A stretch of DNA of 64,000 nt from a virus (Duplodnaviria; Heunggongvirae; Uroviricota; Caudoviricetes): IMG/VR virus record IMGVR_UViG_3300029740_000238, one strand, 5' to 3'. The notes under the pieces were generated by a model, which saw only the letters and a program-made list of their open reading frames with translations, was not told where the DNA came from and ran no database searches. The stretch's first letter is position 1. Each line of letters begins with the position of its first letter. The position numbers and the translations under genes are program-made. Below, one piece after another: positions 4,735 to 35,920 of the stretch.

Positions 4735-4739
4735 AGCCT

Positions 4740-18119: not shown

Positions 18120-18252
18120 GCCACTCTATCCAATTCCAGCATGACATTCGGCTGCACGCCGTATGCTCATATATGAAGCAGTTATCGTAAAAATGATAGC
18201 TGCTATTTTTATTTTACAAGCCTCGAAAATACGAGGAGAAAGAGAGTTTGCT

Positions 18253-19413
18253 ATGAAAACCGCTATGAACACCAACATCAACACCAACACTACCAATTCC
18301 AAGAAAGTTATCCCCGGCATCAATGACGTGGCTACCAAATGCCCTAAGGTCGCTGCCATGTGGAGTGACAAGAACACCTTCTCTCCCAGTAAAGTGGCTG
18401 CGGGAAGCAGAAGAAAGTTCACATTTGTTTGCCCAGACTGTGGGCAGGAATTTGAAAGCAAAATCTTTAGTGTTGTTCGTTCGGTAATGAACGGTAACAC
18501 TGGTTGCCCTGTTTGTGCAGGTAAAAAGATTGTTTCCGGCATCAATGATGTGGCTACTAAGTGCCCTATGGCCGCTGCCATGTGGAGTGACAAGAACGCT
18601 TTCACTCCCAGTGAAGCACCTGCAGGAAGCCACAAAAAAGCCATTTTTGTGTGTCCTGATTGCGGACAAGAGTTTGAGTCTTCCATTTGCAATGTCGTCA
18701 ACTCTTTGATGCATTACCGCACCGGTTGTCCCGTTTGTCGTGGCTTGAAAGTGGTTTCCGGAATCAACGACTTGGCTACTAAGTGCCCTGCAGCAGCCAA
18801 CATGTGGGGCAGCAAAAACGCTTGCTCTCCAAATGAGGTATCTGCAGGCAACAACAAAATGGCATGGTTTGTCTGCCCCGACTGCAAACAGGAGTTTAAG
18901 GCTCCCGTTTGCAACGTCGTCAATTCTTTGTTGCATGACAATACCGGTTGCCCTGTTTGTGCAGGTCGCAAAGCTGTTTCCGGCGTCAACGATTTGGCGA
19001 CCATGTATCCAAAAGCCGCTGCTATGTGGAGCGGCAAGAACGATTACGCCCCCAGCAAAATTCCTGCTCGGTCGTCCAGACGCGCAATTTTTGTGTGCCC
19101 CGATTGCAAACAAGAGTTTGTGACAAGCATCCACAACATGACGCGGGCTATTGCATCCGGTGTTACTTGCTGCCCCAATTGCAGAATGCGAGGACATACT
19201 ATCGGTGCGATTTACAAGGATGAGTATGGTTCGCCGAAATCTGTTGGCACTACGATGACGATGAAGGACGGCAGCAAAGCCACCTGCACCGCTTATCATG
19301 GTGTCAACAACATCACCGTCGAGTTCGAAGACGGGTTCGTTCTGTACCATGCTCGCTGGAATCAGTTTATCCGTGGCGCTCTTCACCACGGTCAGAAAAC
19401 CACTGAAGAATAA
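18253..19413 (+). CDS. Protein with four tandem ~70-aa zinc-ribbon repeats (GINDxATKCP ... W ... KN ... CPDC ... GCPVC)
   Basis: Internal repeats were seen directly. RBS GAGGAGAAAG. Paralogous to the next gene. Confidence 0.7.
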   Translation: MKTAMNTNINTNTTNSKKVIPGINDVATKCPKVAAMWSDKNTFSPSKVAAGSRRKFTFVCPDCGQEFESKIFSVVRSVMNGNTGCPVCAGKKIVSGINDVATKCPMAAAMWSDKNAFTPSEAPAGSHKKAIFVCPDCGQEFESSICNVVNSLMHYRTGCPVCRGLKVVSGINDLATKCPAAANMWGSKNACSPNEVSAGNNKMAWFVCPDCKQEFKAPVCNVVNSLLHDNTGCPVCAGRKAVSGVNDLATMYPKAAAMWSGKNDYAPSKIPARSSRRAIFVCPDCKQEFVTSIHNMTRAIASGVTCCPNCRMRGHTIGAIYKDEYGSPKSVGTTMTMKDGSKATCTAYHGVNNITVEFEDGFVLYHARWNQFIRGALHHGQKTTEE

Positions 19414-19542
19414 TAAAAAGCCATCTGATACGAAGTTGGCTTGTGAATGTGAATGTAGCAGCTATCATCTTCCTCCAGTAGGGGGATGGTCGCTGCTTTT
19501 TTATTACAAGCCTCGAATGTTACGAGGAGAAAGAGAAAAATT

Positions 19543-21102: not shown

Positions 21103-21158
21103 TAGATTACAAGACCTCTGACGAACTCAGTCGTCTTTTTACATAGATAGCGTTTCCT

Positions 21159-21197
21159 GCCGTTCACCCATAACCGGGTGGGCGGCTTTTTCTTTTG
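21159..21197 (+). terminator. Rho-independent terminator (same GGGTGGGCGGCTTTTTCTTTTG family)
   Basis: GCCGTTCACCC ... GGGTGGGCGGC stem plus T-run. Confidence 0.6.
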
Positions 21198-21430
21198 CCA
21201 ACTACTTGCCATACGTCAATTTCATGCATGAATTACAAAATAGTAACCGTTCCATACAACCGCTGGCGATGACTACCAGTTGTAGTGTATTTGATTGGAC
21301 TTCCAAATTCTATTTTACACGCACATATTGCAACTTACGGTTGTATTTGTTATACTAATAACAACCGATAACAACCAACAAAGAGCAAATAACAACTAAC
21401 AGGTGTTGCGGCAAACAAGGGAGGCCAATC

Positions 21431-22699
21431 ATGGCGAGCGAACGAGCGATACTTCACTGTGACATGAACTCTTTTTACGCAAGCTGCGAGGCGGCTTATA
21501 ACCCAAAGCTGCAGGGAAAACCAATTGCGGTATGTGGTGACCCGGAAAGGCGAAATGGCATCGTGTTGACTGCCTCATATCCGGCCAAACGGATGGGCGT
21601 GAAAACCGGGATGGCTTTGTGGGAAGCACAGCAGCATTGCAGAGACATCATCTTTGTTCCGGCTCATTATGACCTTTATACTAGGTACAGTAAATACACC
21701 AGAGAAATCTTCTTGCGTTTCACAGACCAGGTCGAACCGTTTGGCTTAGATGAAGCATGGCTTGATTGTACCGCAAGCCAGTCACTTTTTGGGACAGGGG
21801 AAAAGATAGCCAAGAAAATCTCTGATACCGTGAAGGATGAGCTCGGCATCACCTGTTCTATCGGCGTGAGCTGGAATAAAGTCTTTGCAAAGCTGGGGTC
21901 CGACTATAAGAAACCGGATGCCACCACCATCATATCAAGGTCAAACTGGAAGGATATCGTATTCCCGCTGCCTGCCACGGACCTTTTGTATGTTGGGTCC
22001 AGAACGGGGAAAAAGCTGTCAAACTACTGTATCCATACAATCGGTGACTTGGCGACCACCAATCCAAGCTTTCTGAAAGAGAAACTCGGAAAAATCGGTC
22101 CCATGCTATGGGAATTTGCCAACGGGCTTGATACGGGAACGGTAGCAAAATACGAGGACAGGGAGGCTCAAGCACCCATCAAGAGCGTTGGGAACAGTTG
22201 GACCACGCCAAGAGACCTCCTAACTGATGGGGACGTCTGGATAGTGCTTTATCTTCTTTCGGAGAGTGTTGCGGCCCGCCTCCGGGAGAATCATTTCCGA
22301 TGTCGAGGAGTAGAAGTGAGTCTCCGAGATTCCAGCCTTTTCAGCTTTGAACGGCAAGTCAAGCTGCCTCAGCCAACGATGCAGGAAAAGGATATTGCAG
22401 AGGCAGCGTACCAGCTGTACAAGAAGAATTATCGGTGGAGTGAGCATCTTCGCTCAGTCGGTGTGCGTGCCATTGACCTGCGTCCGGATACCGAACCAAA
22501 CCAGATATCTTTTGAGTATAGTGCCGAAAAGCAAGAGGAGACTGAACGACTCGAATCCGCAATCGATGGGATACGAAACCGATTCGGATACTACTCTGTG
22601 CAAAGGGCTGTTATGTACAAGGACCGCTTTCTCTCGCATTGTGATGCAAAGGGTGACCATACGATTCACCCACATGGGTATTTGCAAGGGAGCGTCTAA
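21431..22699 (+). CDS. Y-family DNA polymerase (DinB/UmuC/ImpB family)
   Basis: The N-terminus DMNSFYASCE ... LDEAWLD is diagnostic. RBS GGGAGG. Confidence 0.9.
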   Translation: MASERAILHCDMNSFYASCEAAYNPKLQGKPIAVCGDPERRNGIVLTASYPAKRMGVKTGMALWEAQQHCRDIIFVPAHYDLYTRYSKYTREIFLRFTDQVEPFGLDEAWLDCTASQSLFGTGEKIAKKISDTVKDELGITCSIGVSWNKVFAKLGSDYKKPDATTIISRSNWKDIVFPLPATDLLYVGSRTGKKLSNYCIHTIGDLATTNPSFLKEKLGKIGPMLWEFANGLDTGTVAKYEDREAQAPIKSVGNSWTTPRDLLTDGDVWIVLYLLSESVAARLRENHFRCRGVEVSLRDSSLFSFERQVKLPQPTMQEKDIAEAAYQLYKKNYRWSEHLRSVGVRAIDLRPDTEPNQISFEYSAEKQEETERLESAIDGIRNRFGYYSVQRAVMYKDRFLSHCDAKGDHTIHPHGYLQGSV

Positions 22700-22702
22700 G
22701 CT

Positions 22703-22975
22703 ATGCCAGAACAAAGAATCAAGAAATATGTAGAAGTCATTGCCGACTTTTCTCCTGAAGGTATCCTGACACCTCAAACAGTCATCTGGGACACAGGCCA
22801 GAAATTCGACATCACCTGTATCTCGGAGGTGCTGCCACGCAAATACTCAAAGACTGGTGGTGTTGGGGTACGCTATACCTGCCAAATAGGAAGAGCCAAA
22901 ACATATCTGTTCTTTGAGGAAGACAAGTGGTTTGTTGAGGCAAAAGAAAACGCTGCAGCAGCAGACTCTTGCTAA
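22703..22975 (+). CDS. Small protein translationally coupled to the Y-family polymerase (possible YolD-like accessory protein)
   Basis: 90 aa, 3 nt after the polymerase stop. The family call rests on position alone. Confidence 0.4.
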   Translation: MPEQRIKKYVEVIADFSPEGILTPQTVIWDTGQKFDITCISEVLPRKYSKTGGVGVRYTCQIGRAKTYLFFEEDKWFVEAKENAAAADSC

Positions 22976-23361
22976 AAGTCGAAGAAATAATTGCCCGTCA
23001 AGACTCCATCGACTTTCATAGTAGCGTTTGGGTCAGGCTTGCAACCGGATTTGCGGCAGAATGACTCCATTTCATGCGTTAACACGGACTGAATGATAAT
23101 GCGGTGTACACCGTATTCTTCGCAAATTTTCTTCAAAGCCGAAAGTATCGCTGTCATCGTACCACAACGCTTATGCGCGAACTCAACACGAGAAAGAACC
23201 AGTGCAAAATGGCCAAGAAAAGCAACACGTAACTCGTTCTTTCCATCGCTTGAGGTAATCCAAACAGTACGCATGCTGGTAGAAACACTGCAATGACAGT
23301 TTTGCTTATTTTCAATAATATCAACAAGTTGTTGTATTTGTTCTTTTGTAAGCTCGAGCAT
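22972..23361 (-). CDS. Hypothetical protein (possibly acyltransferase-fold)
   Basis: 129-aa ORF on the minus strand. Weak fold guess only. Confidence 0.4.
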   Translation of the reverse strand: MLELTKEQIQQLVDIIENKQNCHCSVSTSMRTVWITSSDGKNELRVAFLGHFALVLSRVEFAHKRCGTMTAILSALKKICEEYGVHRIIIQSVLTHEMESFCRKSGCKPDPNATMKVDGVLTGNYFFDF

Positions 23362-23461
23362 ACCGATAGCCCTCCGATATTTTTATCGCTTAAACATTAT
23401 AACACAATATTAAGCAGACGAAACGACTCTAAAACAATTCACAGAAAGAAGGTGAAGCATT

Positions 23462-24016
23462 GTGAATAGCAAGTATCGAGAGCAAACCTGCTGCTTTGTC
23501 GGGCACAAGGATATCCCACCGGGAGAAAAGCTCAAAATATTAGCCAGAGTAGAGCATCGACTGATTCCTCTCATTCAGCAGGGAGTCATATACTTTGGTA
23601 TCGGTGGCTCTTTAGGGTTCGATGCCCTCATGGCAGATATGCTGGTTTCCTTGAAAGCTGCACATCCTCGTATTCGTATCATTGAGGTTTTACCATTTGA
23701 GGGATACCGTTCCAGGTGGAGTTTAGAACAACAGCGGCACGCAGAGAAGATAGACAAACAGGTGGATAAGATTGTCTATGCGGCGAAAGAGCCAAGCAGG
23801 GGAGTATATCTTTTAAGAGACCGGCATTTAGTGGATTGTTCTGCCTATTGCATCTCCTATTGTACTAGAAATACTGGAGGCACAGCATATACGGTAAAAT
23901 ACGCTCTGGAACATGGCGTAACGGTGTATAACGCTTCCAGTTTCGATGTGAGCGCCTTGCTTCAGGCTCAGCCGCTTGGGAAGAACGAACAGGTAGTGTC
24001 TTCGCACAAAATATGA
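23462..24016 (+). CDS. SLOG-superfamily protein (DUF1273/YpsA-like)
   Basis: CCFVGHKDIP near the N-terminus matches the C-x-TGHR signature. GTG start with RBS GAAGGTGAAG. Confidence 0.55.
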   Translation: MNSKYREQTCCFVGHKDIPPGEKLKILARVEHRLIPLIQQGVIYFGIGGSLGFDALMADMLVSLKAAHPRIRIIEVLPFEGYRSRWSLEQQRHAEKIDKQVDKIVYAAKEPSRGVYLLRDRHLVDCSAYCISYCTRNTGGTAYTVKYALEHGVTVYNASSFDVSALLQAQPLGKNEQVVSSHKI

Positions 24017-24296
24017 GGGAGATTTCCTGGCGTTTGGAAAAAGCACCCCTATGACTTTGAGCTTTGCCGCACAAAAAGCGAGCCTCCGCTCTTTGGCGGG
24101 GGCTCTTCTTGTATTCTCAAAAACGTTGAATTTAATTTCACTGAATTCCGATTCAGCATTATTTGGCGTGGCTCAGCTTGGCCCGGTAGCACGATACCAT
24201 GGCGGCCGAACACAACGATTCTCCAGAACGGAATTCTCGACATTCGGTGCGAATCGTATATAATCTAAATAATAAAACAGTATAGGAATATAGCTA

Positions 24297-24338
24297 AGCC
24301 GCCAAGCGAGTGAAATCGTTTGGTGGCTTTTCTTTTTG
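24297..24338 (+). terminator. Rho-independent terminator
   Basis: AGCCGCCAA ... TTGGTGGCT stem plus TTTTCTTTTTG. Confidence 0.55.
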
Positions 24339-24381
24339 CTGCGGAAAAGTAGACATTGTACTTGTCATGAGCTTGTTGCAT

Positions 24382-24445
24382 ACTTGCTACGAACTTGCTA
24401 AAAACTTGCTAAGCACTTGCGACGCTTCACCTCGAAGCAAGTTCA
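24382..24445. repeat. Four direct repeats of ACTTGC(T/G)A at exact 11-bp phasing, plus an inverted GCAAGT copy
   Basis: Copies at 24382, 24393, 24404 and 24415, seen directly. Confidence 0.7.
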
Positions 24446-24903
24446 TTTTTTTGCGCGAAAGAATATCGGATAAGTGACGCTTCCTACTCGTATGACCGAA
24501 AGAAAACATGCAAAGACTCTACCATTCTGGTAGGGCTTTTTTGCTGCCCAAAAAGTTGGAAAAATGTCGCAAGCGAGCCGCTGAAACCTCAGAATTTTGT
24601 CGCAGCCTTTCCGAATATGAGATGTATCTCACAAAAGCGAAATGCGCTGCTTCGTATCTGTGGTGAGACAATCGGAACAGGCGAATAGCAAAATCTCAGC
24701 TGCCGCAAATGCTGTCAAGTTCAAATCACAACTCCCAAAAGTTTCGTTTGGGAAAGCCTGCATTAAAAGTTTCGTTCTGGAAAATGCAGAGGGGAAAGGA
24801 AAATGTCGAAGCATATATGCACTGATTTTCTTCTTGCTATTTGTGCAATCCGCTCAAATTGGCGATAAATATTCCCAAAATAAATAAGTCAAAGTGCTTT
24901 TGG

Positions 24904-24911
24904 TGTATAAT
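24904..24911 (+). promoter_or_regulatory. Extended -10 promoter (TGTATAAT) for the lipoprotein gene
   Basis: TGTATAAT lies 32 nt upstream of the start. A duplicate copy precedes the paralog. Confidence 0.5.
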
Positions 24912-24942
24912 GGCTCTGACAAACAGAAAAAAGGAGAACACT

Positions 24943-26034
24943 ATGAAAAAGGTTGTATCATTAGCACTTTCGACTTTGCTCGTCCTCTCGTTGGCTGCCT
25001 GTGGCAAGGCAGACAGTTCTGCTGCAGCCTCAAGTAAATCCAAGTCAAGTGCTTCGTCGTCAAGTGCTTCGTCAAATAGCACTTCCAATAGCACGCAAGA
25101 TTACAGCCCTGACGGGATTAAAGTAGGAGAGACATATACTACAGAAGACGGCAAAACATATGAAAGGGTGTGGAACGGCACAGGCAGCGATTTACCCACG
25201 CCGTCCCCCGAACCCAAAATTACATACGATAATGATTTCCAGGCACAAACACTTGTTGATAATGAAGAATGCACCATTATCTTGCAGAGCGTAGGCTACG
25301 ATGATGATTACGGCTATTATTGGAAGCTTTACTTCAAGAATAAGACATCAGATAAAAAACTCGGTTACTCGTTTGGCGACTGCACATTGAATGGCGTGGG
25401 TGCGAGCCTTTGGCTTACGAGTGTTGAACCTGGTCAAGAGGAAACGGAGATTCATCATTGGGAAAGTTCCGGGCTTAAAATTTATAACATCAATCCGCAG
25501 GATATCAATACGGTAAGTTTTTATCTCAATGTTTATAACGAATTAGATGATGCTGTCCCACGACATGACCTTGTTGATGACGATTTCGTGGTTTATCCAA
25601 AAGGGGAAGAAAACGCAACCGAGCCAAAGCATGAAACTCAACCCACAGACCTCGTACTGGCCGACAATGACGCTTGCACTCTGATGATTTGTGGATTTGA
25701 CCCCGATGGCCTGGACGGTTACACGGCTAAAGCTTACATCGAAAACAAAACAGATAAAGAAATCATGCTTGCCTTTAGAAGTGGAGGTTCCATAAATGGC
25801 TTTGAGTGCTTCCCTGAAACAGATACAATGGGAATTGATGCGCACACTAATGCCTATGTAGACATCTACTATCGCGATTATTTGGATACTTATGAGGCCA
25901 ACGGTAAAGACCCCACCTCTATCACCGAAATGGTGATGCCAATCGTTATAAACAATTTCAATACTCGGGACATCTATGTAGATGAGACTTTCACTATCAA
26001 CCCTCAGACAAATTCCGTGACAACATCGGAATAA
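24943..26034 (+). CDS. Lipoprotein with an internally duplicated domain (paralog A)
   Basis: MKKVVSLALSTLLVLSLAACG lipobox. Two copies of a DNxxCTxxLQxVGYDDxYGYYW ... NKTD domain. Confidence 0.7.
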   Translation: MKKVVSLALSTLLVLSLAACGKADSSAAASSKSKSSASSSSASSNSTSNSTQDYSPDGIKVGETYTTEDGKTYERVWNGTGSDLPTPSPEPKITYDNDFQAQTLVDNEECTIILQSVGYDDDYGYYWKLYFKNKTSDKKLGYSFGDCTLNGVGASLWLTSVEPGQEETEIHHWESSGLKIYNINPQDINTVSFYLNVYNELDDAVPRHDLVDDDFVVYPKGEENATEPKHETQPTDLVLADNDACTLMICGFDPDGLDGYTAKAYIENKTDKEIMLAFRSGGSINGFECFPETDTMGIDAHTNAYVDIYYRDYLDTYEANGKDPTSITEMVMPIVINNFNTRDIYVDETFTINPQTNSVTTSE

Positions 26035-26150
26035 TTTGACGCCCTCCTGCGATTAAAATTGTTGGCTTTCCCAGACTTCATTTGCAATTTTGCAAATAAA
26101 GTTTCATTCTGGAAAACACGGTGGAAAAGTAAAATGCCGAAGCGCTTTTG

Positions 26151-26158
26151 ATGTATAA
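26151..26158 (+). promoter_or_regulatory. Extended -10 promoter (TGTATAAT), duplicate
   Basis: Same element as at 24904. Confidence 0.5.
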
Positions 26159-26189
26159 TAGCCTTATACAAAGAAAAAAGGAGAAAATC

Positions 26190-27212
26190 ATGAAAAAGGT
26201 TGTATCATTAGCACTTTCGGCTTTGCTTGCCCTTTCCCTGGCCGCCTGTAGCAGCTCTAACACTACCAGTACTGCTGCCAGCAGTGCAGCTACATCTGAT
26301 GCTGCATCCTCCGAGGAAAGCACCAGCGACTCTTCAACGAGTACTGCAAGTAGTGCTGCCGATAATGCAACGGCTGAACCCGACATCCAGTTCGATGAGA
26401 GCTTCCAGCCACAGACGATTGCCGACAACGATACCTGTACCATCATCTTGCAGAACGTGGGTTATGATGACAGCTATGGCTACTACTGGACCGTTGATTT
26501 CCAAAATAAAACGGATGACAAAACTCTTTGCGCTATCACAAGCAGCTCGTCCTTGAATGGAATCCCGGCAGATACCAGTTGGTTCCCGGAAATTGGACCA
26601 GGAGTGAAAACCACCGAGGTCGTTTCGTGGGATAAAGCAGGACTGGAAATCTATGGAGTGAAACCGCAAGACATCGATACCGTCAAACTTCACATCGATG
26701 TCTATGATGAAGCAGAATGGGATGTGTCGAATCGTGATGACCCTGTCGATGATGACTTTGTGATTTATCCGAAAGGTGAAGAGAACGCGACAGAACCAAA
26801 ACACGAGATTCAGCCCACGGATATTGTGCTGTTCGACAATAATGCCTGCAGCATGGTCATTTGCGGATTCTATTCCGACAGCTTCATGGGCTATACGGCG
26901 AAAGCCTACTATCAGAACAAGACGGATGACCGTATCGATATCATTTTGGACAAAGGCTCTATCAACGGCTTTGAATGTACCCCGGAAGGAGCGGCACTAC
27001 TGGAACCACATTCCAACGCCTATGTTGACATTCGTTGGCAAGAATATGCTGAAACTTATGCAGAGAATGGCAACGACCCAACATCCATCACAGAAATTGT
27101 AATGCCAGTTTTTGTGAGAAAAGACACAGGGAACAATACGGTATACATTGATGCCACTTATTCTATTGACCCGCAGGCAAGAACTGCAACGCCGATAGTG
27201 AACCCCCAATGA
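26190..27212 (+). CDS. Lipoprotein paralog B (same duplicated-domain architecture)
   Basis: MKKVVSLALSALLALSLAACS lipobox. Shares long identical stretches with paralog A (DDDFV.YPKGEENATEPKHE.QPTD). Confidence 0.7.
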   Translation: MKKVVSLALSALLALSLAACSSSNTTSTAASSAATSDAASSEESTSDSSTSTASSAADNATAEPDIQFDESFQPQTIADNDTCTIILQNVGYDDSYGYYWTVDFQNKTDDKTLCAITSSSSLNGIPADTSWFPEIGPGVKTTEVVSWDKAGLEIYGVKPQDIDTVKLHIDVYDEAEWDVSNRDDPVDDDFVIYPKGEENATEPKHEIQPTDIVLFDNNACSMVICGFYSDSFMGYTAKAYYQNKTDDRIDIILDKGSINGFECTPEGAALLEPHSNAYVDIRWQEYAETYAENGNDPTSITEIVMPVFVRKDTGNNTVYIDATYSIDPQARTATPIVNPQ

Positions 27213-27307
27213 TAGTCGCATGATTTTCCGAAACCAAAAAACTTCTGGAATAGCAGCAAAACTTTTCTGGAATGGGAAAACTCTCCGGCTTTTTGGAATG
27301 AAAAAAT

Positions 27308-27344
27308 AAAAGCGCTCACCATTTTTCGGTGGGCGCTTTTCTTC
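27308..27344. terminator. Bidirectional terminator
   Basis: AAAGCGCTCACC ... GGTGGGCGCTTT stem with T/A runs on both sides. Confidence 0.6.
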
Positions 27345-27372: not shown

Positions 27373-28917
27373 TTAGTCGTGGGTTATTGACTCTTCAGTT
27401 TTCTTTTTCAGCCATTGTCTTCTCACAAACGGCGTGACATAAGTTTCATCACTCTTCAGCTCATAGCCATAGCTTTCAGCTATCAGGATGGCACGTTCGC
27501 TTGCTTTCTGTCCGGCAGGCAGGTGGCGAATGAAACCATTGATGTTTTTGGACGAAGCATCATATTTGGACTTGTCGAACACCCGCAGCGGCTCGTCGTC
27601 ACCATTGCCTTTCTTGCGATAATCGCGGGGCTTTCCGCCAATCATCAGACAACGAATCCCAAATGGAGCATCCGCGTGTGTCACAAACGAAGACCGGAAC
27701 GACGCATCAGTGGGCAGGACATCCGGCAAATCACAGGCGAGAGAAGTGTACAGCCAGAGAATCAGATTCGTGACGCTGTCAACCAGCTCTGGAAATTGAG
27801 CTCGGTCAGTCAAAATATAAAACCACTCGGTGCTTGTGTTATAGTATCCGGCCAGGTCACCGAACTTGGTTACGATTTTATACAGACACACAATCTCGTT
27901 GTCGCGGCAAGTCTCTTTCAGCTTAATTTCCTGTATCAGCTGGCAGACATCAAACTGAAACAATGCACCGTTGGCGGGAAGAGTTCTGCGGCGATGGTGC
28001 AGCGTATCTTTCAGAAACTCTGTCGTATATTTGGGTGAGATGGGCTTTGGCCACCAGGACCACATGTTCGGAGTATTCTCAATCAGCGGCTTGTCCGGCA
28101 GCATGTCCACGGTATACTCGTTCACATAGGTGGCCATCGAAAGAACCGTGTTTGTATACAAATGCGAGAGCAAAGCGAGGTCGTTGATGCTATCGAAATC
28201 TGCTACATTCTCATAGCCATAACGCTTATAGTACGAAAAGACCATATCCAGGCGTCTATCTTCAGAAATCTGAAAATCGCATTTATCGTATGGCCGATTA
28301 TTGAAAAGGGCTTCACTATAATAGACTGGAACATCCGCAAGGGGATAGGGGTCCCGAATGATGATAGGCTCATTCTCAGTCGAAATGCCAACAATGTTGT
28401 TCACAATGTCAAATTCCTGAGGCTTGAGGTATTCGCTCCCCTGTATCAGCATATCGATTACCGCGTACAGGACAGAATCATTACGTTCCATAACTCCGTC
28501 AATGGACAATCCTGAATGAACACATTCCTGCGCATAGGCAATAGCCTTGAAATACAGAGCATAGTCCTTATTCTTCTTGATGGGCTTTGTGAGCTCCTGC
28601 AAGAACCGATGATATCCCTTGATGAATTTATCAGAGTTCGCCATGGCGAGCTCTATCTGAGAGTTAACGGCCTCAATAAGAGGTTTGCACTCCTCAGCTC
28701 CACGGGCCAGGTGAAAGAGGAAAGTAGATGCTTTCCCAAAATCCATGTCATGCAATGTCGTCGCAACCTGGCAAGCGCTGGACAGGGTTCTTCTCTGAAA
28801 TACCCAGATAAACTCGCCTTTGCTCCGATACTTCTTATCCCATACCGGTGCGTATTTATCGACTAAGGCATTACCGAAATCTTCCTGCACTGCCAAAACA
28901 CCATTTTCGTTCTGCAC
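27373..28917 (-). CDS. Hypothetical 514-aa protein, second gene of a two-gene operon
   Basis: Starts 10 nt after the upstream gene stop. No domain recognised. Confidence 0.55.
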   Translation of the reverse strand: MQNENGVLAVQEDFGNALVDKYAPVWDKKYRSKGEFIWVFQRRTLSSACQVATTLHDMDFGKASTFLFHLARGAEECKPLIEAVNSQIELAMANSDKFIKGYHRFLQELTKPIKKNKDYALYFKAIAYAQECVHSGLSIDGVMERNDSVLYAVIDMLIQGSEYLKPQEFDIVNNIVGISTENEPIIIRDPYPLADVPVYYSEALFNNRPYDKCDFQISEDRRLDMVFSYYKRYGYENVADFDSINDLALLSHLYTNTVLSMATYVNEYTVDMLPDKPLIENTPNMWSWWPKPISPKYTTEFLKDTLHHRRRTLPANGALFQFDVCQLIQEIKLKETCRDNEIVCLYKIVTKFGDLAGYYNTSTEWFYILTDRAQFPELVDSVTNLILWLYTSLACDLPDVLPTDASFRSSFVTHADAPFGIRCLMIGGKPRDYRKKGNGDDEPLRVFDKSKYDASSKNINGFIRHLPAGQKASERAILIAESYGYELKSDETYVTPFVRRQWLKKKTEESITHD

Positions 28918-28927
28918 GGTATCCTCC

Positions 28928-30325
28928 TTACAACTTTAACTGCCCCACACAACTCTGCGCGGTGGGCAGTAGCTTGTGGGCCATCTCGTTTCGAAAATAC
29001 TTGGGGTCCACGGCCCGCATCCCGAACCGCACACGGTCCAGGGCATCTGCGTCCTTGAGAATCGTATATAGCAGCCACACCCGTTCTTTGTTTCGAATAT
29101 TGGATGTTTTGAGGTCTGCAAGAGCCTTGCGGTCATCCAAGCAATGATACTCGATGAGGAAAGCAGTTGCCGAATTGCATTCGGGAACAGCATCATAATA
29201 AATGTCATTGGACTTTGCTCCGTGACTGTCATCGACATCATCATTCGTCCGCCCAATATCATGATAAAGAATCGCATCACATAGCTGGTGGGATTCTTTT
29301 CTTGTTAAGGCAATGCCCTGAACCTGAACCAAAAGCAGCGCATCAAAGAGAACTCGCAGCGTATGCTCGGCGTCGTGCTCCTCATCATTAGCCCGGCCAT
29401 AAGCATCATACAGAGTGGAAATGCGGCTCCGGTAGCGCTGGTAGAGAGGGTAGAGCGCCTGGATTTCGTCTGTCAGAGCGTTGATACCGAGAAGCACATC
29501 GACCTTTACATCTTTTACGGCAGCCGGTAGGACAAGGACCTCTTTTTCCTCATCGTCCGGAAAATACTCGATGATGTCACATTTGCTGACATGGGCAGTG
29601 ATGATTCTGCTGTTCTCGAGACTCGGGATGCGGCAGGCGAAGAAACAGGCTGCCTTGTAGCTTGTGGTCCAGGAGAAAGATTTCTCGTATGGAGTTGACT
29701 TACTCCCTTCCCCGCGATAGATGGTCACAACATCCGGCAGGCTGGACAGCTTCTTTTCAGTATCTTCCTTTTGCTTTTGAGATTTTCCAGCAAAGACCTT
29801 TTGCAGGCCATTCTCACTGAGGGAAGAAAAGCCAAAATCACTGGTGCGATACAGGTCAAGAAAGAGAACATATAAGTCCTCACCAGGATTGGACAACTCA
29901 ATGTATTTAGAAAGAACCGATACGCGAAGGCTGTCTTCCAGGGAAAAGAGGTAGCTGCGAATAAAGGGGGCGTTTCCCGATGAGATTTTCTCGGCCATAT
30001 CCAGAACTCTCTGCTGAAACTTTTCGTCCGATTCGCCGTTCACAGCCAGACGCTTGTCCCCGTAAATGTTCAGAGAGAGAACAATGGGAACGGTCGTGCT
30101 ATCGAGCTCGCAATAATAGAGAGGAGCAAGCATATTGTGCGCAGCATAAATCTTGTCGATGGGGAGTCTCGGATACTTTTTAGCGAATTCAGTGGCTGTT
30201 ATACCGATGCTGTAGCCTTCTTTGTAGTACCGTTCAATATCCGCGCTCGTCTGCACTGCAGTGAGGGGTAGCATCGTCTCGAGACTTGCTTGGTTGATGC
30301 TTACAAGAATATCCCCGACCGTCAT
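28928..30325 (-). CDS. Multidomain protein: central ADP-ribosyltransferase-like motifs plus a C-terminal HD phosphohydrolase domain
   Basis: HD motifs at EHTLRV and LYHDIGR. Candidate R-S-E triad at YRG (aa 203-205), TTS (220-222) and EKEVLVLP (260-267). RBS GGAGGAGAAA. Confidence 0.55.
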   Translation of the reverse strand: MTVGDILVSINQASLETMLPLTAVQTSADIERYYKEGYSIGITATEFAKKYPRLPIDKIYAAHNMLAPLYYCELDSTTVPIVLSLNIYGDKRLAVNGESDEKFQQRVLDMAEKISSGNAPFIRSYLFSLEDSLRVSVLSKYIELSNPGEDLYVLFLDLYRTSDFGFSSLSENGLQKVFAGKSQKQKEDTEKKLSSLPDVVTIYRGEGSKSTPYEKSFSWTTSYKAACFFACRIPSLENSRIITAHVSKCDIIEYFPDDEEKEVLVLPAAVKDVKVDVLLGINALTDEIQALYPLYQRYRSRISTLYDAYGRANDEEHDAEHTLRVLFDALLLVQVQGIALTRKESHQLCDAILYHDIGRTNDDVDDSHGAKSNDIYYDAVPECNSATAFLIEYHCLDDRKALADLKTSNIRNKERVWLLYTILKDADALDRVRFGMRAVDPKYFRNEMAHKLLPTAQSCVGQLKL

Positions 30326-30792
30326 TGTTTTTCTCCTCCCACAATTCTTCTAACATAATTATATCATATTTTACAGATGGACGGGCCAAAATCGCAACTT
30401 TGTTCATGAATACTTAACCTTTATGCACGAGATTTATTGTTGCCTTAATATATAAAACTAGAGCCCCGTCATCTTGGATGGGGCTCTTGAGTTGTAGCTG
30501 GAGGTGTATCTCATTTTGTGCCAGGGGTATTGTATGGTAGTTTTCGAAAATGAGTGCAAAAAAACAAACACCAGAAGTCAAACTCAAAAATATCTTAGTC
30601 TTGGCAAGTTTACCCTTGCGCTGCTGTGCGAACTTCGTACAATAAGAATTGTACAAGAGAAACGGCAAGAGACATTTGTAGTGATTGTAGTTGGTCGCCA
30701 CGAATCGATGCCGCATCTGCTTGCGCATAATTACCTCTTTTCGAAGCCCACAGGTCATTCTCTCACCTGTGGGTTTTGTTTATTGCGGAATC

Positions 30793-30810
30793 GTGCGAAT
30801 TGCGGACAAT
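30793..30810 (+). promoter_or_regulatory. Recurrent promoter-like motif GTGCGAATTGCGGACAAT
   Basis: Family consensus GTGCGAATTGC-N-TACAAT. A partial second copy AGTGCGATTGTGAG follows. Confidence 0.45.
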
Positions 30811-30829
30811 TAAAGACAGTGCGATTGTG

Positions 30830-31190
30830 AGATGGGGCGATACCGATGCAGTAGGGATGAGAATCTTAGCAGCTAAAAGAGTCAACAACCCCGCCTAAAC
30901 CGGTTCGGCGGTTATAGACGGGGCTTGCGGGGCAACCTGTAAGCCCAGTTGATTAGCCTAAGCCCATTGCTCCGGCAGTGGGGAAAACTACGTTGTGTAC
31001 TAATAATATAGGCACCTTATCCATGCTCCACAAGTGGTGAGCTCTGCAGGCGTTTCGTTAAACATCTCCGAGGGGAGGAGAAGTGCGAGCGTTATGTCGA
31101 AAGGCTAAAACAGTGCATAACATTGGCGAAGTGGACCACAGGACGCAAGTCCTGACTTATAGTTTTATTACTATTTTACGAATGGAGAAA
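30830..31190 (+). other. About 360 nt of GC-rich, hairpin-dense non-coding sequence upstream of the flotillin gene; candidate structured leader or ncRNA
   Basis: Multiple stems (CCGCC..GGCGG, GGGCTT..AAGCCC, CCCATTG..CAGTGGG, AGGAC-GCAA-GTCCT plus a U-rich tail) and no ORF. Confidence 0.35.
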
Positions 31191-31198
31191 CAAAAATT

Positions 31199-32842
31199 AT
31201 GGTATATGTGATTGGAATTGTGGCAGCCCTGATTATTCTCTTTGGATTTCTCTGCTACAAGAAAGCTCCGCCCACGGAGGCTATCGTTGTAACTGGCTTT
31301 GGCCTGTCTAAGCCTAAAGTGGTTTGCGGAAAGGGTACATTTGTTCTGCCCGTTCTTCAACGGGCTGACCGACTGAATATGCGCCTTTTGAAAATCGATG
31401 TCAAGACTCCTGAAACAGGTGTTAAGACGAAGAACGGCGTAAGTCTCTGGATTGACTCTGTTGTCACGATTCAAGTCTACAGCGAAAACTCTACCGTTCT
31501 GGATGAAGAAGTGAAGGCATCCGGTCTGAAAGACGCCAAGGCGTACATCATGTCCCGCCAGCAGGCAGCCATCTCGAACTTTCTCGGCATGAACGAGCAG
31601 GGCATCAATGAGAAAGTTAATGACGTTCTGCAGGGCAATTTGCGTGAGATTGTCTCTGACATGACCGTTGACCAAATTCTGACGAACCGCAAGCAGATGG
31701 CTGTGAGCGTTATCGAGAATGCTCGCCCCGACCTTGCTAAGATGGGACTTGAGGTCGTGACTTTTAATGTCCAGGACATCAGGGATGCAGTGGATGTTCA
31801 AGGCCACAATCACGGCGTTATCGAAGCTATCGGCATCGAACAGGAAGAGCTCGTAAAGAAACAGGCTGAAATTGCCCGTGCTCAGGCTGCCCGTGATGTA
31901 GCCTGCGCGAAGGCCGATGCTGAGATGGCTGCAAATGCCAAGGAAGTTGAAGCGCAGACTGCGATTGCAAAACGCAACAATGAATTGCAGCTCGCCAAGG
32001 CAAAGCTGAAAGCTGAAGCTGATAAAGCTGCGGCTGACGCAGATGCTGCCGGTCAGATTCAGATGAATCTCCGCGCCAAAGAAATCAAAGAAGCGGAAGC
32101 GGATGCTGAAATCGCCAAGCAGAAGAAAATGGTAGACCTTGCCGCACAGGAAGCCGAGGTCCAGCAACGCAAACTGGATGCGGAAGTCCGCAAACAGGCA
32201 GATGCTGACCTGTACCGCTGCCAGAAAGAGGCAGAAGCCAAGAAATATGAGGCGGAACGTGCAGCTGAGGCACAGAAGTTCTCTAAGCAGCAGGAAGCAG
32301 AAGGCATTGAGCTTGTCGGTAAGGCAGAAGCTGAAGCGATTCGTCAGAAAGGCTTGGCTGAAGCGGAAGCCATGAAACAGAAAGCAGAGGCATATAAGCA
32401 GTATAACGATGCGGCTGTGGCTGAAATGCTCATCAAGGTTCTTCCTGACATTGCCAAGAGCGTGGCTCAGCCTTTGTCCAGCATTGATAAGGTTTCTATC
32501 ATTGGCGGTGATGCCTCCGGCGTATCCGGCGTTTCCGGGAACGTTCCTATCCTGATGGCTCAAACCATGCAGACGGTGAAAGAAGCGACCGGCATTGACA
32601 TGGGCGAAATTGTCCGTGCCAACAGCATCCAGGCAAAGACAGACCGCAACATCAACATTATGACTCAATGTGAACAGCCTGAGAATAACAAAGAGAAAGG
32701 AGGTGCCAAGGCAATGGAACGCGTAGAAGGCGGCTATCTGATTCATGAGAAGAATCTCAACGGTGAGGAAGTCACTCATTTTCGACCGGATGTGACCGAA
32801 GAAGAGAAGGCTATCATGAAAGACAAAAAGGCCAAAGATTAA
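31199..32842 (+). CDS. Flotillin-like SPFH/band-7 protein with an Ala/Glu/Lys-rich coiled-coil region
   Basis: N-terminal TM helix, SPFH core and long EA-repeat coiled coil, as in FloT/YuaG. Confidence 0.8.
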   Translation: MVYVIGIVAALIILFGFLCYKKAPPTEAIVVTGFGLSKPKVVCGKGTFVLPVLQRADRLNMRLLKIDVKTPETGVKTKNGVSLWIDSVVTIQVYSENSTVLDEEVKASGLKDAKAYIMSRQQAAISNFLGMNEQGINEKVNDVLQGNLREIVSDMTVDQILTNRKQMAVSVIENARPDLAKMGLEVVTFNVQDIRDAVDVQGHNHGVIEAIGIEQEELVKKQAEIARAQAARDVACAKADAEMAANAKEVEAQTAIAKRNNELQLAKAKLKAEADKAAADADAAGQIQMNLRAKEIKEAEADAEIAKQKKMVDLAAQEAEVQQRKLDAEVRKQADADLYRCQKEAEAKKYEAERAAEAQKFSKQQEAEGIELVGKAEAEAIRQKGLAEAEAMKQKAEAYKQYNDAAVAEMLIKVLPDIAKSVAQPLSSIDKVSIIGGDASGVSGVSGNVPILMAQTMQTVKEATGIDMGEIVRANSIQAKTDRNINIMTQCEQPENNKEKGGAKAMERVEGGYLIHEKNLNGEEVTHFRPDVTEEEKAIMKDKKAKD

Positions 32843-32974
32843 AGACAACGAATGAAAAGAGGGTGACTCGAAAGAGCCATCCTTTTTTCTGTTGTGACGC
32901 AAACGAAAAGTTCATGGTAGCCATCCAATTTGGGTGACTGTCTTTTTTGCATGTTAAGGCTTTGTTGCTGAATT

Positions 32975-32992
32975 GTGCGAATTGAAGATAAT
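32975..32992 (+). promoter_or_regulatory. Recurrent promoter-like motif GTGCGAATTGAAGATAAT
   Basis: Family member about 55 nt upstream of the 33047 gene. Confidence 0.4.
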
Positions 32993-33046
32993 TAAAAACA
33001 AAAGATGCTTTGTATCAAATCGATTGAAACCGAAGAGGTGAAGTTA

Positions 33047-33439
33047 ATGCTCGGCGTGAGTTTGATTATCATAGCAGCGGCTATAGTCTACATGGTCGAA
33101 ACCTATATCAGCACCTATTACACTATCGAATACATGCACGGAACATCGCTGTTCCTTATCCTCCTTGCGAAATATGGCACGCCAGTCCTGTTCCTGCTGC
33201 TCTGCGCCTACATTGCATATCGCAAATTCCTCAAAAAGCAGAAAGCTGCGGCTTCTGCTGCATCTGAACGGCCTACAAGCAAAGAAGAGCTGTATACCAA
33301 CAAAATTCAAACGGCATTGACACCTCCCACGATTGAAATCGTGGGATTCCTGGGCGGCGCGGCAAGGTTCATCGCCAAACCGTGTCTGAAACAGCGAGTT
33401 ATGTGGTTTCCCATCATGCACTACGGGTGTAGCGCATGA
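33047..33439 (+). CDS. Small membrane protein (possible flotillin-associated NfeD-like partner)
   Basis: 130 aa with two to three TM helices. RBS GAAGAGGTGAAG. The family call rests on position alone. Confidence 0.45.
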   Translation: MLGVSLIIIAAAIVYMVETYISTYYTIEYMHGTSLFLILLAKYGTPVLFLLLCAYIAYRKFLKKQKAAASAASERPTSKEELYTNKIQTALTPPTIEIVGFLGGAARFIAKPCLKQRVMWFPIMHYGCSA

Positions 33440-33449
33440 CGAGCATCCA

Positions 33450-33577
33450 GCCAAAATGGTTGACCAACATACTTGTCTGTATTCCCAGTTCTTTTAAGTG
33501 CATCCTCCGAAGGGAGTTTCACCTCTTGCGAGGCAGCTCTTTAATGAGGGAGTGTCGAACCCCCAGAAAGTTATTGT
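33450..33577 (-). ncRNA. Candidate TnpB guide (omega/right-end RNA) region at the IS right end
   Basis: By analogy, TnpB guide RNAs derive from the 3' end of tnpB plus the IS right end. A hairpin-rich segment lies directly downstream of the tnpB stop. Confidence 0.3.
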
Positions 33578-35314
33578 TTAGAATCCAATGCTTGCAGGAA
33601 GAGAACTTCCAACCGCCTGCAAGCGATGCTTTGTATTTTCGTGCATTTCTAAAAATGCAGGAAAAGCTGAATTAAGGGTTTCCATATTGTACTGCAAGGA
33701 TTCGATATCTATATGTTCAAGCAGGAAGGCAGAATATAAGTCACGCTGGACTACTTCTCCGCTGTGGAGACGAGCCATTCGCTCGGATAGTTTCTTTTTG
33801 GTATAACTTTCATCTGTATGGTCAAATTGCGAGGCTTTTGTTTCAAAGGTGCTGACTTTGATAACGCTGCCGCCATAACGATTGGCTTTTTTGTTCAGGA
33901 TGGAAATAAACATTGCGGGGGCGCAGCGGCTTAGAGACTTTCCGAACCGTTTTTTCGTATGTGCTCTGCCAGTTTTAGCGTTGATTTTTGTTTCTTTGCT
34001 GCGCTTCTGCAAGGCTTTGTAGTTCATATCTTCAACCACAAACTCGTTACCATATGCCAACAATTCGTTGGCGAGAATGTTGTGCTCCATTTTGCGAATG
34101 TCAGCTAACTTACGGTACAGGTTACGAAGCTTTGCACGCAAACGATAATACCTTTTGCTGTATTTCCACTTGCGCTTTTGTTTTTGTCCATGCTGTCGCT
34201 TCAACCTTTTGATTGTACCATCCGAATTATAGTATTTCGGATTCGTAGCGCGGCGCGAACGGTCCATTGCACGAAGCGTACAAGCGATTTCGTTCACGAG
34301 GCTTTTTGCCTGCGCTCTTGCAGACGGAGCGAGTACGCGAAGGTCGCAAACATCCTTACCGCTAAAGGCAATGGTTTGTGTACCGATATCAAGACCTATG
34401 CGCCCTTGATTGACAGGATGCTTCATCACACCGTTACTGTCGCATTTGGTGGGAGGATAGCCTTCTAAGATGAATTGTGCATAATACTTCCACTTGGTCT
34501 TAACCCACTTACGAGTAATGCGGCAGTATTTCACTCCACATTTGAGAGCTTCTTGCTGATATTTTCCTGTCTGAGTTTTAGGATTACGCAACACAACAGG
34601 AAATTCATGCTTTCCGTACACAATGCGCAGGTTGCCTTCTCCGATAGTGGGCTTAATTTTTGCGATAGCGGCAGCAATTTCAGCTTCCATTTGTGGTTTT
34701 ACCTCATCAGGAAGAACGACTTTCTTATCGTCTTTAGGGTCAGGCCGCCCGTACATATCATCGTATCGCTTCTCGACGGCTTTTTGCGCCTTGCGCTTAG
34801 CCGACTCAATATTGCTTGTAGTGAGGTTTGCCGGGCGAAGCACGATACCGGTGAAGTTGTTTTTTCCGGAGATAGCTGCTAAATCATCTAACCTTTTGTA
34901 GTGAACCTCTTTTCCTTTGCTAAAGAAGAAAGTGCTCCATGCTTTCCAAACATCAGAGGCAACTGCCTGTGCTATATGGGAGTTTATGGCATAGTGCTTC
35001 GCGTACGGCACAACCAACTTATGAAAAGCATCTTCAGAAAAACGATATTCTTTAAGCATCTTTTCGCGTTGCTTAAAGAGTGTTTTTTGCTCATCGCTGT
35101 CGGGAGTTGCTTTTGCAATAGCTGCCATCAACTCACGATACTTGCGCGTCTTGCGCAATTGATGCCACATTTTTGTAGTCGCACTCACAAGCTGATTGTA
35201 GATGACACCACACTTCTTGAACTCCTTATACAGATAGTCTTGCTCGTTGAGACTTATATCAAGAGGCAATGTCAATACAAATGATGGCGTGCTATTCTTG
35301 CTCCCGAAAGCCAT
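33578..35314 (-). CDS. tnpB: TnpB (IS605 OrfB family, RuvC-like RNA-guided nuclease homolog)
   Basis: GLDIG (RuvC-I), VVEDMNYKALQKR (RuvC-II) and C-terminal QRDLYSAFLL (RuvC-III-like) motifs. 578 aa. Confidence 0.75.
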   Translation of the reverse strand: MAFGSKNSTPSFVLTLPLDISLNEQDYLYKEFKKCGVIYNQLVSATTKMWHQLRKTRKYRELMAAIAKATPDSDEQKTLFKQREKMLKEYRFSEDAFHKLVVPYAKHYAINSHIAQAVASDVWKAWSTFFFSKGKEVHYKRLDDLAAISGKNNFTGIVLRPANLTTSNIESAKRKAQKAVEKRYDDMYGRPDPKDDKKVVLPDEVKPQMEAEIAAAIAKIKPTIGEGNLRIVYGKHEFPVVLRNPKTQTGKYQQEALKCGVKYCRITRKWVKTKWKYYAQFILEGYPPTKCDSNGVMKHPVNQGRIGLDIGTQTIAFSGKDVCDLRVLAPSARAQAKSLVNEIACTLRAMDRSRRATNPKYYNSDGTIKRLKRQHGQKQKRKWKYSKRYYRLRAKLRNLYRKLADIRKMEHNILANELLAYGNEFVVEDMNYKALQKRSKETKINAKTGRAHTKKRFGKSLSRCAPAMFISILNKKANRYGGSVIKVSTFETKASQFDHTDESYTKKKLSERMARLHSGEVVQRDLYSAFLLEHIDIESLQYNMETLNSAFPAFLEMHENTKHRLQAVGSSLPASIGF

Positions 35315-35318
35315 AAAG

Positions 35319-35720
35319 TTACCCTCCTCTCTTTTTTTGCTGTTCTACATAGTGTTGAATCGTAGCGGTAGACACATCTCCGGCAGTGCTTACAAAATAG
35401 TTGCGTGTCCACATTTGCATTTCGATGTCGGGAAAAAATTCTTTCTTTAATTGCCTGCCGGTGGTTCCTTTAATAATTTTCATGATTTCTGCAGCACTTA
35501 ATGTAGGCGGAGCATTCACGAAAAGATGACAATGGTCGATATGACATTCCATTGCCAGTATCACAATGTCGTTTTGCTCACAAATTTGAGTTACAAGTTC
35601 CTTGAAACGAGCTTCAAACCCATCCACCAGAAATAATTTTCTCCGATAGCGTGGGCAAAACACAAAGTGATAATTTATCATAGAAACGGTTGTTTTTGTG
35701 CGTCTGTAGTTTCTTTTCAT
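35319..35720 (-). CDS. tnpA: IS200/IS605 TnpA (Y1 HUH transposase)
   Basis: HIDHCHLFV (HuH) motif and a catalytic Tyr in RNYFVSTAG. Confidence 0.85.
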   Translation of the reverse strand: MKRNYRRTKTTVSMINYHFVFCPRYRRKLFLVDGFEARFKELVTQICEQNDIVILAMECHIDHCHLFVNAPPTLSAAEIMKIIKGTTGRQLKKEFFPDIEMQMWTRNYFVSTAGDVSTATIQHYVEQQKKRGG

Positions 35721-35920
35721 GTATCTATTTTATCACAATTCAGACAATTTTATGTTACAGATATATGAACTTTATATCACAACATCGTCACATTACAATT
35801 ATATTGGCAAATACGAAGAAAACCATTATTGTCGGCCTATCATCCCACGGTTGAAACCGTGGGCTTTCCCGGCCTTCATTTTGTAAAGACAAAAAGCGTC
35901 TTCTCAGAGCAGGCTGACCA

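Follow-up and report, generated by a model that had tools for sequence, protein, structure and literature searches.

ADP-ribosylation is a central weapon in the conflicts among phages, plasmids and bacteria. To our knowledge, the other pairing of an ADP-ribosyltransferase (ART) with an HD-type domain is that of the Legionella SidE effectors, and we are aware of phosphoribosyl-linked modification essentially only from these effectors, which act on eukaryotic ubiquitin. The SidE family comprises the phosphoribosyl-ubiquitin ligases SdeA, SidE and SdeC, with mART and PDE domains, and the PDE-only proteins DupA and DupB (SdeD). The signature R / S-x-T / E-x-E marks protein transferases specific for arginine, among them VIP2, iota, Alt, ART2 and CT/LT. 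The ARTs of polyvalent proteins, which phages and conjugative elements encode, have an H-Y-D active site and are presumed to act on host proteins when the cell is entered (PMC5512222).

The window, the whole stretch of 64,000 nucleotides that was analysed, encodes a 465-aa protein in which the ART and HD folds are joined, both with conserved active sites and in a mobile-element context. The one-polypeptide pairing is shared with SidE at the fold level only. The domain order, ART before HD, is the reverse of that in SidE, PDB profile searches of the enzyme returned no SidE-family chain at E<=10, and neither SidE sequence homology nor the Legionella-type H-E-H triad was found. The HD domain keeps the classical HD motif, in contrast to the Legionella PDEs (PMC6941232). 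The family differs from the R-S-E clade ARTs (C3/VIP2/iota/Alt-type, PF03496; Rhs/T6SS TreX and TreTu) in having no Pfam ART match, in the very compact spacing of 14 residues from R to S-x-T and in lacking a conserved adjacent immunity protein. The ecological setting is that of ART-PolyVal and Tox-ART-HYD2, but membership in ART-PolyVal was rejected, as the active site is R-S-E rather than H-Y-D and no PF18760, LPD or other polyvalent-module match was found. The anti-CRISPR ADP-ribosyltransferase AcrIF11 is only 11% identical and has no HD domain. The initial annotation did not recognise the fusion from known families. In the literature searched, neither an ART-HD family nor a Sir2-HD-PncAB operon was described. 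The ART-HD enzyme is widespread and hitherto unannotated.

Organisation of the operon

The two-gene minus-strand operon was found as first annotated, with both ORFs co-oriented and 10 nt apart (Table 1). The 465-aa ORF starts with ATG and the 514-aa ORF with GTG. A GGAGG ribosome-binding site lies 7 nt 5' of the GTG and overlaps the TAA of the upstream ORF, and a second GGAGG precedes the ATG. The bidirectional terminator proposed on one side of the operon was also recovered, as a hairpin with folding energies of -21.9/-19.7 kcal/mol, z values of -6.7 on the plus strand and -5.4 on the minus strand, and U-runs on both. Promoter-like sites in the region were no more numerous than in shuffled sequences by the consensus scan. 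The 800 bp of structured non-coding DNA described on the other side (30326-31198) stood in part: the region includes a HEARO RNA within a 304-bp insertion, a segment absent from most sister elements. The gene of the 465-aa enzyme is best explained as cargo on a conjugative element from a Bacillota bacterium of the gut; a search for a plasmid near-identical to the window region found none.

Table 1. Positions of the operon, its protein domains and adjacent signals in the window; motif coordinates were obtained by direct translation.
Feature	Position	Strand	Evidence or detail
CDS of three-domain enzyme, 465 aa (N-terminal domain + ART + HD)	28928..30325	-	ORF call
N-terminal domain, aa 1-167	29825..30325	-	conserved across family; no Pfam or PDB sequence match
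ADP-ribosyltransferase domain, R-S-ExE type, aa ~168-280	29486..29824	-	YRGE = 29708-29719; R204 = 29714-29716; S218-W-T220 = 29666-29674; E260-K-E262 = 29540-29548
HD phosphohydrolase domain, aa ~310-465	28931..29398	-	H321, H355-D356 = 29258-29263, H394, D425/D430; KDADALDR signature
CDS of 514-aa partner, orphan family	27373..28917	-	ORF call; 10-nt gap, translationally adjacent
Bidirectional intrinsic terminator hairpin, common to convergent lipoprotein gene	27308..27340	both	13-bp hairpin flanked by A/T runs
Promoter-like site TTGCGA-18-TAAAAT (weak candidate)	30368..30397	-	consensus scan; ~43 nt upstream of ATG
HEARO RNA (RF02033)	30881..31141	opposite to operon	89.7 bits

The 465-aa enzyme and its family

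The AF2 model of the enzyme reached a pLDDT of 91.6. It placed an ART fold, whose core is a split beta-sheet with a cleft for NAD binding, around the proposed YRG, S-W-TTS and ExE motifs, and an all-helical HD/PDE fold in the C-terminal part. Strand 199-206 holds R204 and strand 218-220 holds S218-W-T220, while E260-x-E262 runs into strand 262-265; this is the layout of the R-S-E clade, in which beta1 carries the catalytic Arg, beta2 carries S-x-S/T and beta5 begins with (Q/E)-x-E. The HD domain contains the sequences EHTLRV and LYHDIGR noted at the outset and the H...HD...D metal-ligand motif.

Conservation was counted over 135 cluster representatives from a library clustered at 50% identity. 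R204 and G205 were present in all 135, S218 in 133, W219 in 125 and T/S220 in 134. E260 was kept in 132 (with D in the other three) and E262 in 133, while the HD residues H321, H355, D356 and D425 were kept in 134, 131, 132 and 134, respectively. Because the motifs are near-invariant, they are not due to chance. Hits numbered about 5,600 in all, and the matches listed from the library included more than 130 independent full-length representatives, which rules out the fusion being a gene-call artefact. The reading of the protein as an ART and HD fusion is thus supported, and from its sequence and model it is very probably an active enzyme in both respects.

Database models largely missed the enzyme. 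Scans with Pfam, NCBIfam, PADLOC and PHROGs gave just a sub-threshold HD match (PF01966, 14.9 bits; gathering cut-off 22) and function-unknown PHROGs. PF01966 was passed by relatives, namely P0119 (34.7 bits, plus HD-CE with 33.1) and proteins of L020, L043 and L075. No ART family (e.g. PF03496, PF01129, PF18760) matched the 465-aa protein at E<=1, and none of the Pfam ART models matched any of 32 family members. Aligned by hhalign to a PF03496-type ART, the ART profile gave a non-significant probability of 2%; against the PDB its best and sole match was TreX, with an E value of 0.94. The full-length profile gave spurious MBP-fusion matches in the PDB and the N-terminal domain profile nothing, and a word-indexed search with the ART profile yielded nothing but short standalone proteins that lack annotation, none with an informative architecture.

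The three-domain architecture defines a large family, of which the ART and N-terminal parts have no Pfam model. Its members are labelled "HD domain-containing protein" or "hypothetical protein" in GenBank. One relative, WP_000067227.1, is encoded by plasmid pBTB_502p of Bacillus thuringiensis Bt407. L018 and L019, the versions in Syntrophomonadaceae, lack the N-terminal domain, a Clostridium perfringens plasmid match (H9) spans query aa 193-456 only, and on C. botulinum plasmids the N-terminal domain occurs without the HD domain. Compared with sister elements, the enzyme had dN/dS values of 0.12-0.21 in each of the three domains, all of which are under purifying selection. The ART-HD alleles are unusually divergent, and fragmentation affects about 10% of the close copies; positive selection was rejected as the cause of the divergence, since dN/dS is about 0.14 and it is dS that is raised.

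The 514-aa partner

Profile searches with the partner, proposed as a check in the initial annotation, gave no family or PDB match. None of its 40 homologs had a relevant Pfam domain, and Pfam and PDB searches with 14 family members and their profile yielded no match and nothing credible, including no macro or ARH domain. PHROGs gave only a chance-level match (E 0.076) and PADLOC none. Where the partner is at least 60% identical, its gene follows the ART-HD gene immediately in almost every locus, whereas more distant homologs do not and adjoin unrelated genes. A partner homolog in L008 has an ART-only gene and a PIN gene as neighbours; the 404-aa protein encoded upstream of a distant homolog (L005/L006) was considered as an ART-HD relative and found not to be related.

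Most ART-HD family members have no adjacent partner, and their neighbours are not conserved. The downstream genes encode proteins of 75, 88, 132, 200, 383, 495 or 509 aa without mutual BLAST similarity, or are lacking altogether, which rules out the partner as an obligate subunit. No conserved gene for a cognate immunity protein or antitoxin, whether a small immunity protein, a macro or an ARH, was found beside family members. The 514-aa protein is a lineage-specific orphan and not a universal component; its gene is presumably co-transcribed with that of the enzyme in this lineage, as an accessory.

Proposed reaction and alternative explanations

The HD domain belongs to a clade that is repeatedly linked to NAD/ADP-ribose enzymes. 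Its nearest sequence relatives are standalone HD proteins of about 192 aa ("HD domain-containing protein"; 33-40% identity), which share the KDADALDR motif. Unlike the ART-HD enzyme, these are single-domain, chromosomal and uncharacterised proteins in a metabolic context of NAD salvage. Members of the clade were seen in Sir2-Sir2-HD-PncB-PncA operons of Bacilli, Flavobacteriaceae and Oscillospiraceae, in a PARG-HD fusion and in an independent C3-like ART-HD fusion. As the clade recurs with ARTs, PARG, nicotinamidase and Sir2, a shared NAD/ADP-ribose substrate is indicated rather than an arbitrary pairing, and on balance we lean towards functional coupling of the two domains.

The enzyme would act in the cytoplasm, where the N-terminal domain may recognise a target or partner. 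The ART domain would transfer ADP-ribose from NAD+ to a target, which the ExE signature suggests is most likely a protein arginine, and the fused metal-type HD domain would then act on the ADP-ribose moiety. Its likeliest reaction would be cleavage of the pyrophosphate, by which AMP is released and the target keeps a phosphoribosyl mark resistant to ordinary ADP-ribosylhydrolases. Such a hand-over from ART to HD would follow the logic of SidE; the specific phosphoribosyl chemistry, predicted by this analogy, is put forward tentatively. More speculative still is that ART-HD proteins are a prokaryotic, mobile-element-borne counterpart of SidE chemistry, placing on a bacterial target a phosphoribosyl adduct or cross-link that host ADP-ribosylhydrolases could not undo, and that the KDADALDR clade is a general, hitherto unrecognised ADP-ribose pyrophosphate-cleaving family also serving Sir2 and PARG pathways. 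If the ART is coupled to an ADP-ribose-processing HD domain, SidE-type chemistry would extend to conflicts between bacteria or between element and host, many proteins annotated merely as "HD domain-containing protein" would gain a function, and a new clade of ADP-ribose-processing enzymes, present also in Sir2/PncA/PncB operons, would be defined.

The two domains might instead work independently in a polyvalent-style effector, with the ART modifying a host protein and the HD domain separately destroying a nucleotide signal or alarmone (ADP-ribose-derived or cyclic-nucleotide immune messengers, (p)ppGpp) with no hand-over of substrate. This is unlikely, given that two or more fusions, alike in domain order, have joined this HD clade to different ART families, and that the clade is also fused to PARG and nicotinamidase and sits beside Sir2 genes. 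An NAD-consuming enzyme, in which the ART fold hydrolyses NAD+ as in the Tse6, TNT and RES toxins and the HD domain degrades ADP-ribose for NAD turnover or depletion, is very unlikely: the signature is that of arginine-specific protein transferases, and the conserved 167-aa N-terminal domain and the allelic diversification better suit a macromolecular target.

A defence or abortive-infection module, with a toxic ART-HD effector and a 514-aa protein that senses infection or restrains the toxin, would fit the tight 10-nt coupling, the fragmented copies and divergent alleles, the ART-only and PIN neighbours of the L008 partner homolog, and the wealth of defence-type genes near the operon (Type I R-M methylase and S subunit, ResIII helicase, PLD nuclease). 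We nevertheless consider it decidedly improbable, as no PADLOC model fits either protein (the enzyme gave only a chance-level PycTM match, E 0.037), the partner is mostly absent beside ART-HD genes with unconserved neighbours, and its distant homologs keep unrelated company. Furthermore, ssb adjoins a family member in two plasmids and a primase gene is also seen as a plasmid neighbour, as is typical for genes of transfer and establishment. The likeliest role of the coupled ART-HD enzyme would be that of an effector aiding establishment of the mobile element or countering host defence in the cell it enters or resides in; taken by itself this role is plausible but somewhat doubtful, and the explanation as a whole, a cytoplasmic cargo effector with coupled chemistry and such a role, has about an even chance. 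In Bacillota the family is carried by plasmids, phages and conjugative elements, including abundant human-gut elements and plasmids of Bacillus thuringiensis, Paenibacillus and Clostridium.

Domain architecture and conservation of ART-HD

In Pfam, the HD domain of the 465-aa ART-HD protein gave a match below threshold (14.9 bits vs a cut-off of 22), and scans with PADLOC and NCBIfam returned nothing credible. The family phrog_4776, of unknown function, matched aa 173-276 (E 1e-14). The AlphaFold model, calculated with 19 homologs as input, was confident (pLDDT 91.6) and had three parts. The N-terminal domain (aa 1-167) is alpha/beta plus helical, two helices lead into a small beta-rich domain at aa ~195-280, and the C-terminal domain is all-helical.

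An exhaustive profile search over 1.84 billion cluster representatives yielded 5,588 matches at E<=1e-3, of which 363 reached E<=1e-30. Of the 150 matches listed, more than 130 spanned the whole 465-residue profile, with lengths of 430-510 aa. In an alignment of 135 full-length representatives, R204 and G205 were present in all 135, S218 in 133, T/S220 in 134, E260 in 132 (the other 3 had D) and E262 in 133, while H321 was found in 134, H355 in 131, D356 in 132, H394 in 131 and D425 in 134. The dN/dS against 65 sister elements (close relatives of the mobile element in the window) was 0.12 for the N-terminal domain, 0.21 for ART and 0.17 for HD. Given the full-length representatives, the near-invariant catalytic residues of both domains and the low dN/dS, the fusion is a real and selected architecture in which both active sites are maintained. 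The reading as ART plus HD was supported by the test proposed with it in the initial annotation, and direct translation confirmed all motifs quoted there.

None of 32 family members (0/32) was matched by the Pfam ART models, and hhalign of the family ART against the PF03496-type domain was not significant. At the sequence level the ART part is an unmodelled ART family. Members are named 'HD domain-containing protein' or 'hypothetical protein' in GenBank/RefSeq. ART-HD forms a sequence family of the R-S-E ART clade that is new and unannotated, fused to an HD clade with links to NAD/ADP-ribose; its component parts belong to already known superfamilies. We know of no studied member. Four related proteins of 579-664 aa (P0109-P0112) were 57% identical to ART-HD over their first ~340 residues, covering the N-terminal domain and ART. 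The remainder was the C-terminal half of FtsH (truncated AAA, lid, peptidase M41) in P0109-P0111, and PF04055 plus AAA in its place in P0112; either insertion into ftsH or chimeric assembly would account for them.

Operon, partner gene and upstream region

Both ORFs of the minus-strand arrangement were found where the initial annotation had placed them (table). Ten nucleotides separate the TAA of ART-HD from the GTG of the partner, a GGAGG upstream of the partner overlaps the ART-HD stop codon, and the ART-HD ATG has a GGAGG of its own ahead of it. On either strand the hairpin beyond the partner folded much more stably than shuffled sequence and is thus, as had been claimed, a bidirectional terminator, common to the operon and the convergent lipoprotein gene. 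The two lipoprotein-like genes are tandem paralogs with Ser/Ala-rich linkers, both pointing toward this terminator; one copy is apparently absent from some sister loci, e.g. L103.

Features of the window and their positions
Feature	Position	Strand	Remarks
VirD4/TraG coupling protein	4-1563
VirB4-like ATPase	4731-7400
Two DUF4379 treble-clef zinc-ribbon proteins, Y-family polymerase (IMS), YpsA-SLOG	18163-24016	+	zinc-ribbon proteins 416 and 538 aa
Flanking genes in dS comparison	24272-27298, 31183-33316
Lipoprotein-like gene	24841-26034	+	397 aa
Lipoprotein-like gene	26148-27212	+	354 aa
Hairpin	27308-27340	both	13 bp, A-/T-runs on flanks; z -6.7 and -5.4 vs shuffles
Partner CDS	27373-28917	-	514 aa, GTG start
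ART-HD CDS	28928-30325	-	465 aa
Promoter-like TTGCGA-18-TAAAAT	~43 nt 5' of ART-HD		weak; such sites no commoner than in shuffled sequence
Polymorphic segment with HEARO	30879-31182		304 bp
HEARO RNA (RF02033)	30881-31141	+	full-length, 89.7 bits (Rfam)
Segment with 578-aa gene	33317-35882		2.57 kb
578-aa gene	33578-35314	-	weak OrfB_IS605/TnpB match, E 0.0045

The 800 bp of structured non-coding DNA noted upstream of the operon did contain a structured RNA, HEARO, the RNA associated with IscB, but they are not a single native region. The segment carrying HEARO was missing in L103, L105, L106, L127, L132, L173 and L176 and retained in L097, L135 and L187; without it the native intergenic region is ~555 bp. 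No HEARO was found in ten related loci, and no IscB/HNH ORF adjoins the copy in the window. From the presence and absence of the segment among sister elements, this HEARO is an inserted, ORF-less element outside the operon.

The partner belongs to a small orphan family of 40 homologs with no relevant Pfam domains; 14 members and their profile gave no match in Pfam or PDB. In ~100 metagenomic and IMG/VR loci with a partner at least 60% identical, ART-HD directly preceded it almost everywhere, except in L157, L158, L161 and L162. Downstream of ART-HD genes at 59% and 43% identity, genes of 75 aa and 88 aa were present instead of the partner, and the neighbours of eleven diverse family members showed no mutual similarity. 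Partner homologs at 30-40% identity adjoined an AAA_33/Zeta-like kinase (L007), a transmembrane protein (L188-L196) or unknown proteins. On L008, a conjugative-type contig that also encodes an LPD1 protein, a PIN7 gene, a 482-aa partner homolog and, 17 nt further, a 233-aa ART-only protein with YRG / SWT / ENE (hhalign probability 97.4%) lie in a row at 5515-8168. This distant case is suggestive: the partner and ART families are associated here a second time, in another order. Because the link dissolves beyond the close lineage and recurs in L008, the partner is a modular cargo gene whose link to the ART family is recurrent, not obligate.

The HD clade and a possible reaction sequence

The nearest relatives of the HD domain were standalone proteins of ~192 aa (33-40% identity) with the 'KDADALDR' motif in common. 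Among 63 standalone-HD loci, two Sir2-like genes were immediately upstream in 23, nicotinate phosphoribosyltransferase was at most two genes downstream in 22, and nicotinamidase was present in at least 9; 31 loci had at least one of the three. A conserved five-gene row of Sir2-like (~294 aa), Sir2 (~285 aa), HD (~192 aa), nicotinate phosphoribosyltransferase and nicotinamidase genes was seen in Bacilli, Flavobacteriaceae and Oscillospiraceae (L024, L025, L029, L033-L040, L049, L056, L060, L064, L086 and others, at position ~6001); no description of it was found in the literature searched.

The same HD clade was fused to nicotinamidase in L022 and to a microbial-type PARG in L020 (452-aa ORF, Peptococcaceae MAG). 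In L075 (1,020-aa ORF at ~6001, uncultured Bacilli MAG), a toxin-like, glycine-rich protein ends in a classical C3-like ART (PF03496, E 1.7e-17; C3stau2, E 1.3e-4) and HD, also in the order ART->HD. The fusions in L020 and L075 are independent ones. Sir2, PARG and ART have ADP-ribose in common, so the most economical inference is that ADP-ribose is also the moiety on which the KDADALDR-type HD clade acts. The two domains of ART-HD probably work together.

Mechanism, target and partner role are inferences. Judging by its ExE signature, the ART domain would ADP-ribosylate arginine, and the HD domain would then cleave the ADP-ribose mark to a phosphoribosyl mark. This order is suggested by the presumed ADP-ribose action of the HD clade and by Legionella SidE, the known precedent for ART plus an HD-derived PDE, in which the mART attaches ADP-ribose to Arg42 of ubiquitin and the PDE splits the pyrophosphate with release of AMP. 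The precedent is functional, without homology; a search for sequence homology of ART-HD to SidE found none. The Legionella PDE, a type that has been compared with HD domains (PMC6941232), is of the H-E-H type, whereas the HD of ART-HD is of the classical metal type and is structurally no more similar to SidE PDEs than to PPX.

Mobile elements and allele age

The window is a conjugative element. Its accessory region encodes DUF4379 zinc-ribbon proteins, a Y-family polymerase, a YpsA-SLOG protein, flotillin, a PLD nuclease, a Mor-like regulator, a ResIII helicase and Type I R-M M and S subunits. Close relatives came from human-gut metagenomes. The ART-HD family is widespread on mobile elements of Bacillota: full-length members were found in Clostridia genomes and on large plasmids of B. 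thuringiensis, Pontibacillus and Aneurinibacillus, and shorter matches on plasmids of Paenibacillus, Brevibacillus, Alkaliphilus and C. perfringens. C. botulinum plasmids carried the N-terminal domain plus ART without HD, and mycobacteriophages and Lysinibacillus phages ART-only versions. On Bt407 pBTB_502p the family gene follows RuvC, SSB and CHC2 primase, and on B. subtilis plasmids an ART-only relative lies between ssb, which it follows directly, and genes for sortase and pilin. A position beside ssb or primase is typical of plasmid transfer and establishment regions (PMC11541004); such adjacency was not seen in the window itself. One gut locus had an AcrVA2-like gene near the ART-HD member, and in L004 a Y-family polymerase and a YolD-like gene were just upstream of the homolog.

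Against 11 sister elements, the median dS of ART-HD was 0.345, ~3-fold that of the partner (0.12) and ~6-fold that of the flanking flotillin and lipoprotein genes (0.03-0.06), with dN/dS near 0.14. By these values the ART-HD alleles are much older than what surrounds them, and the gene in the window appears to be an old allele, acquired by exchange, in a backbone that is young. This indicates either that alleles have been exchanged or that a polymorphism has long been maintained under purifying selection. About 10% of close ART-HD copies were split into 2-4 ORFs (split or truncated examples are L095, L104, L110, L116, L118, L148, L156, L165 and L170; proteins P0063-P0098). They could be low-coverage assembly errors or recurrent pseudogenes; several truncated forms recurred across many samples, e.g. 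P0091 (266 aa, 96 member sequences). Divergent alleles and fragmented copies are both common in conflict genes, though neither is decisive.

The 578-aa gene beyond the upstream flank is large for TnpB. Its segment was missing in the otherwise collinear L103, L105, L106, L173 and L176 and therefore looks like a TnpB-only insertion.
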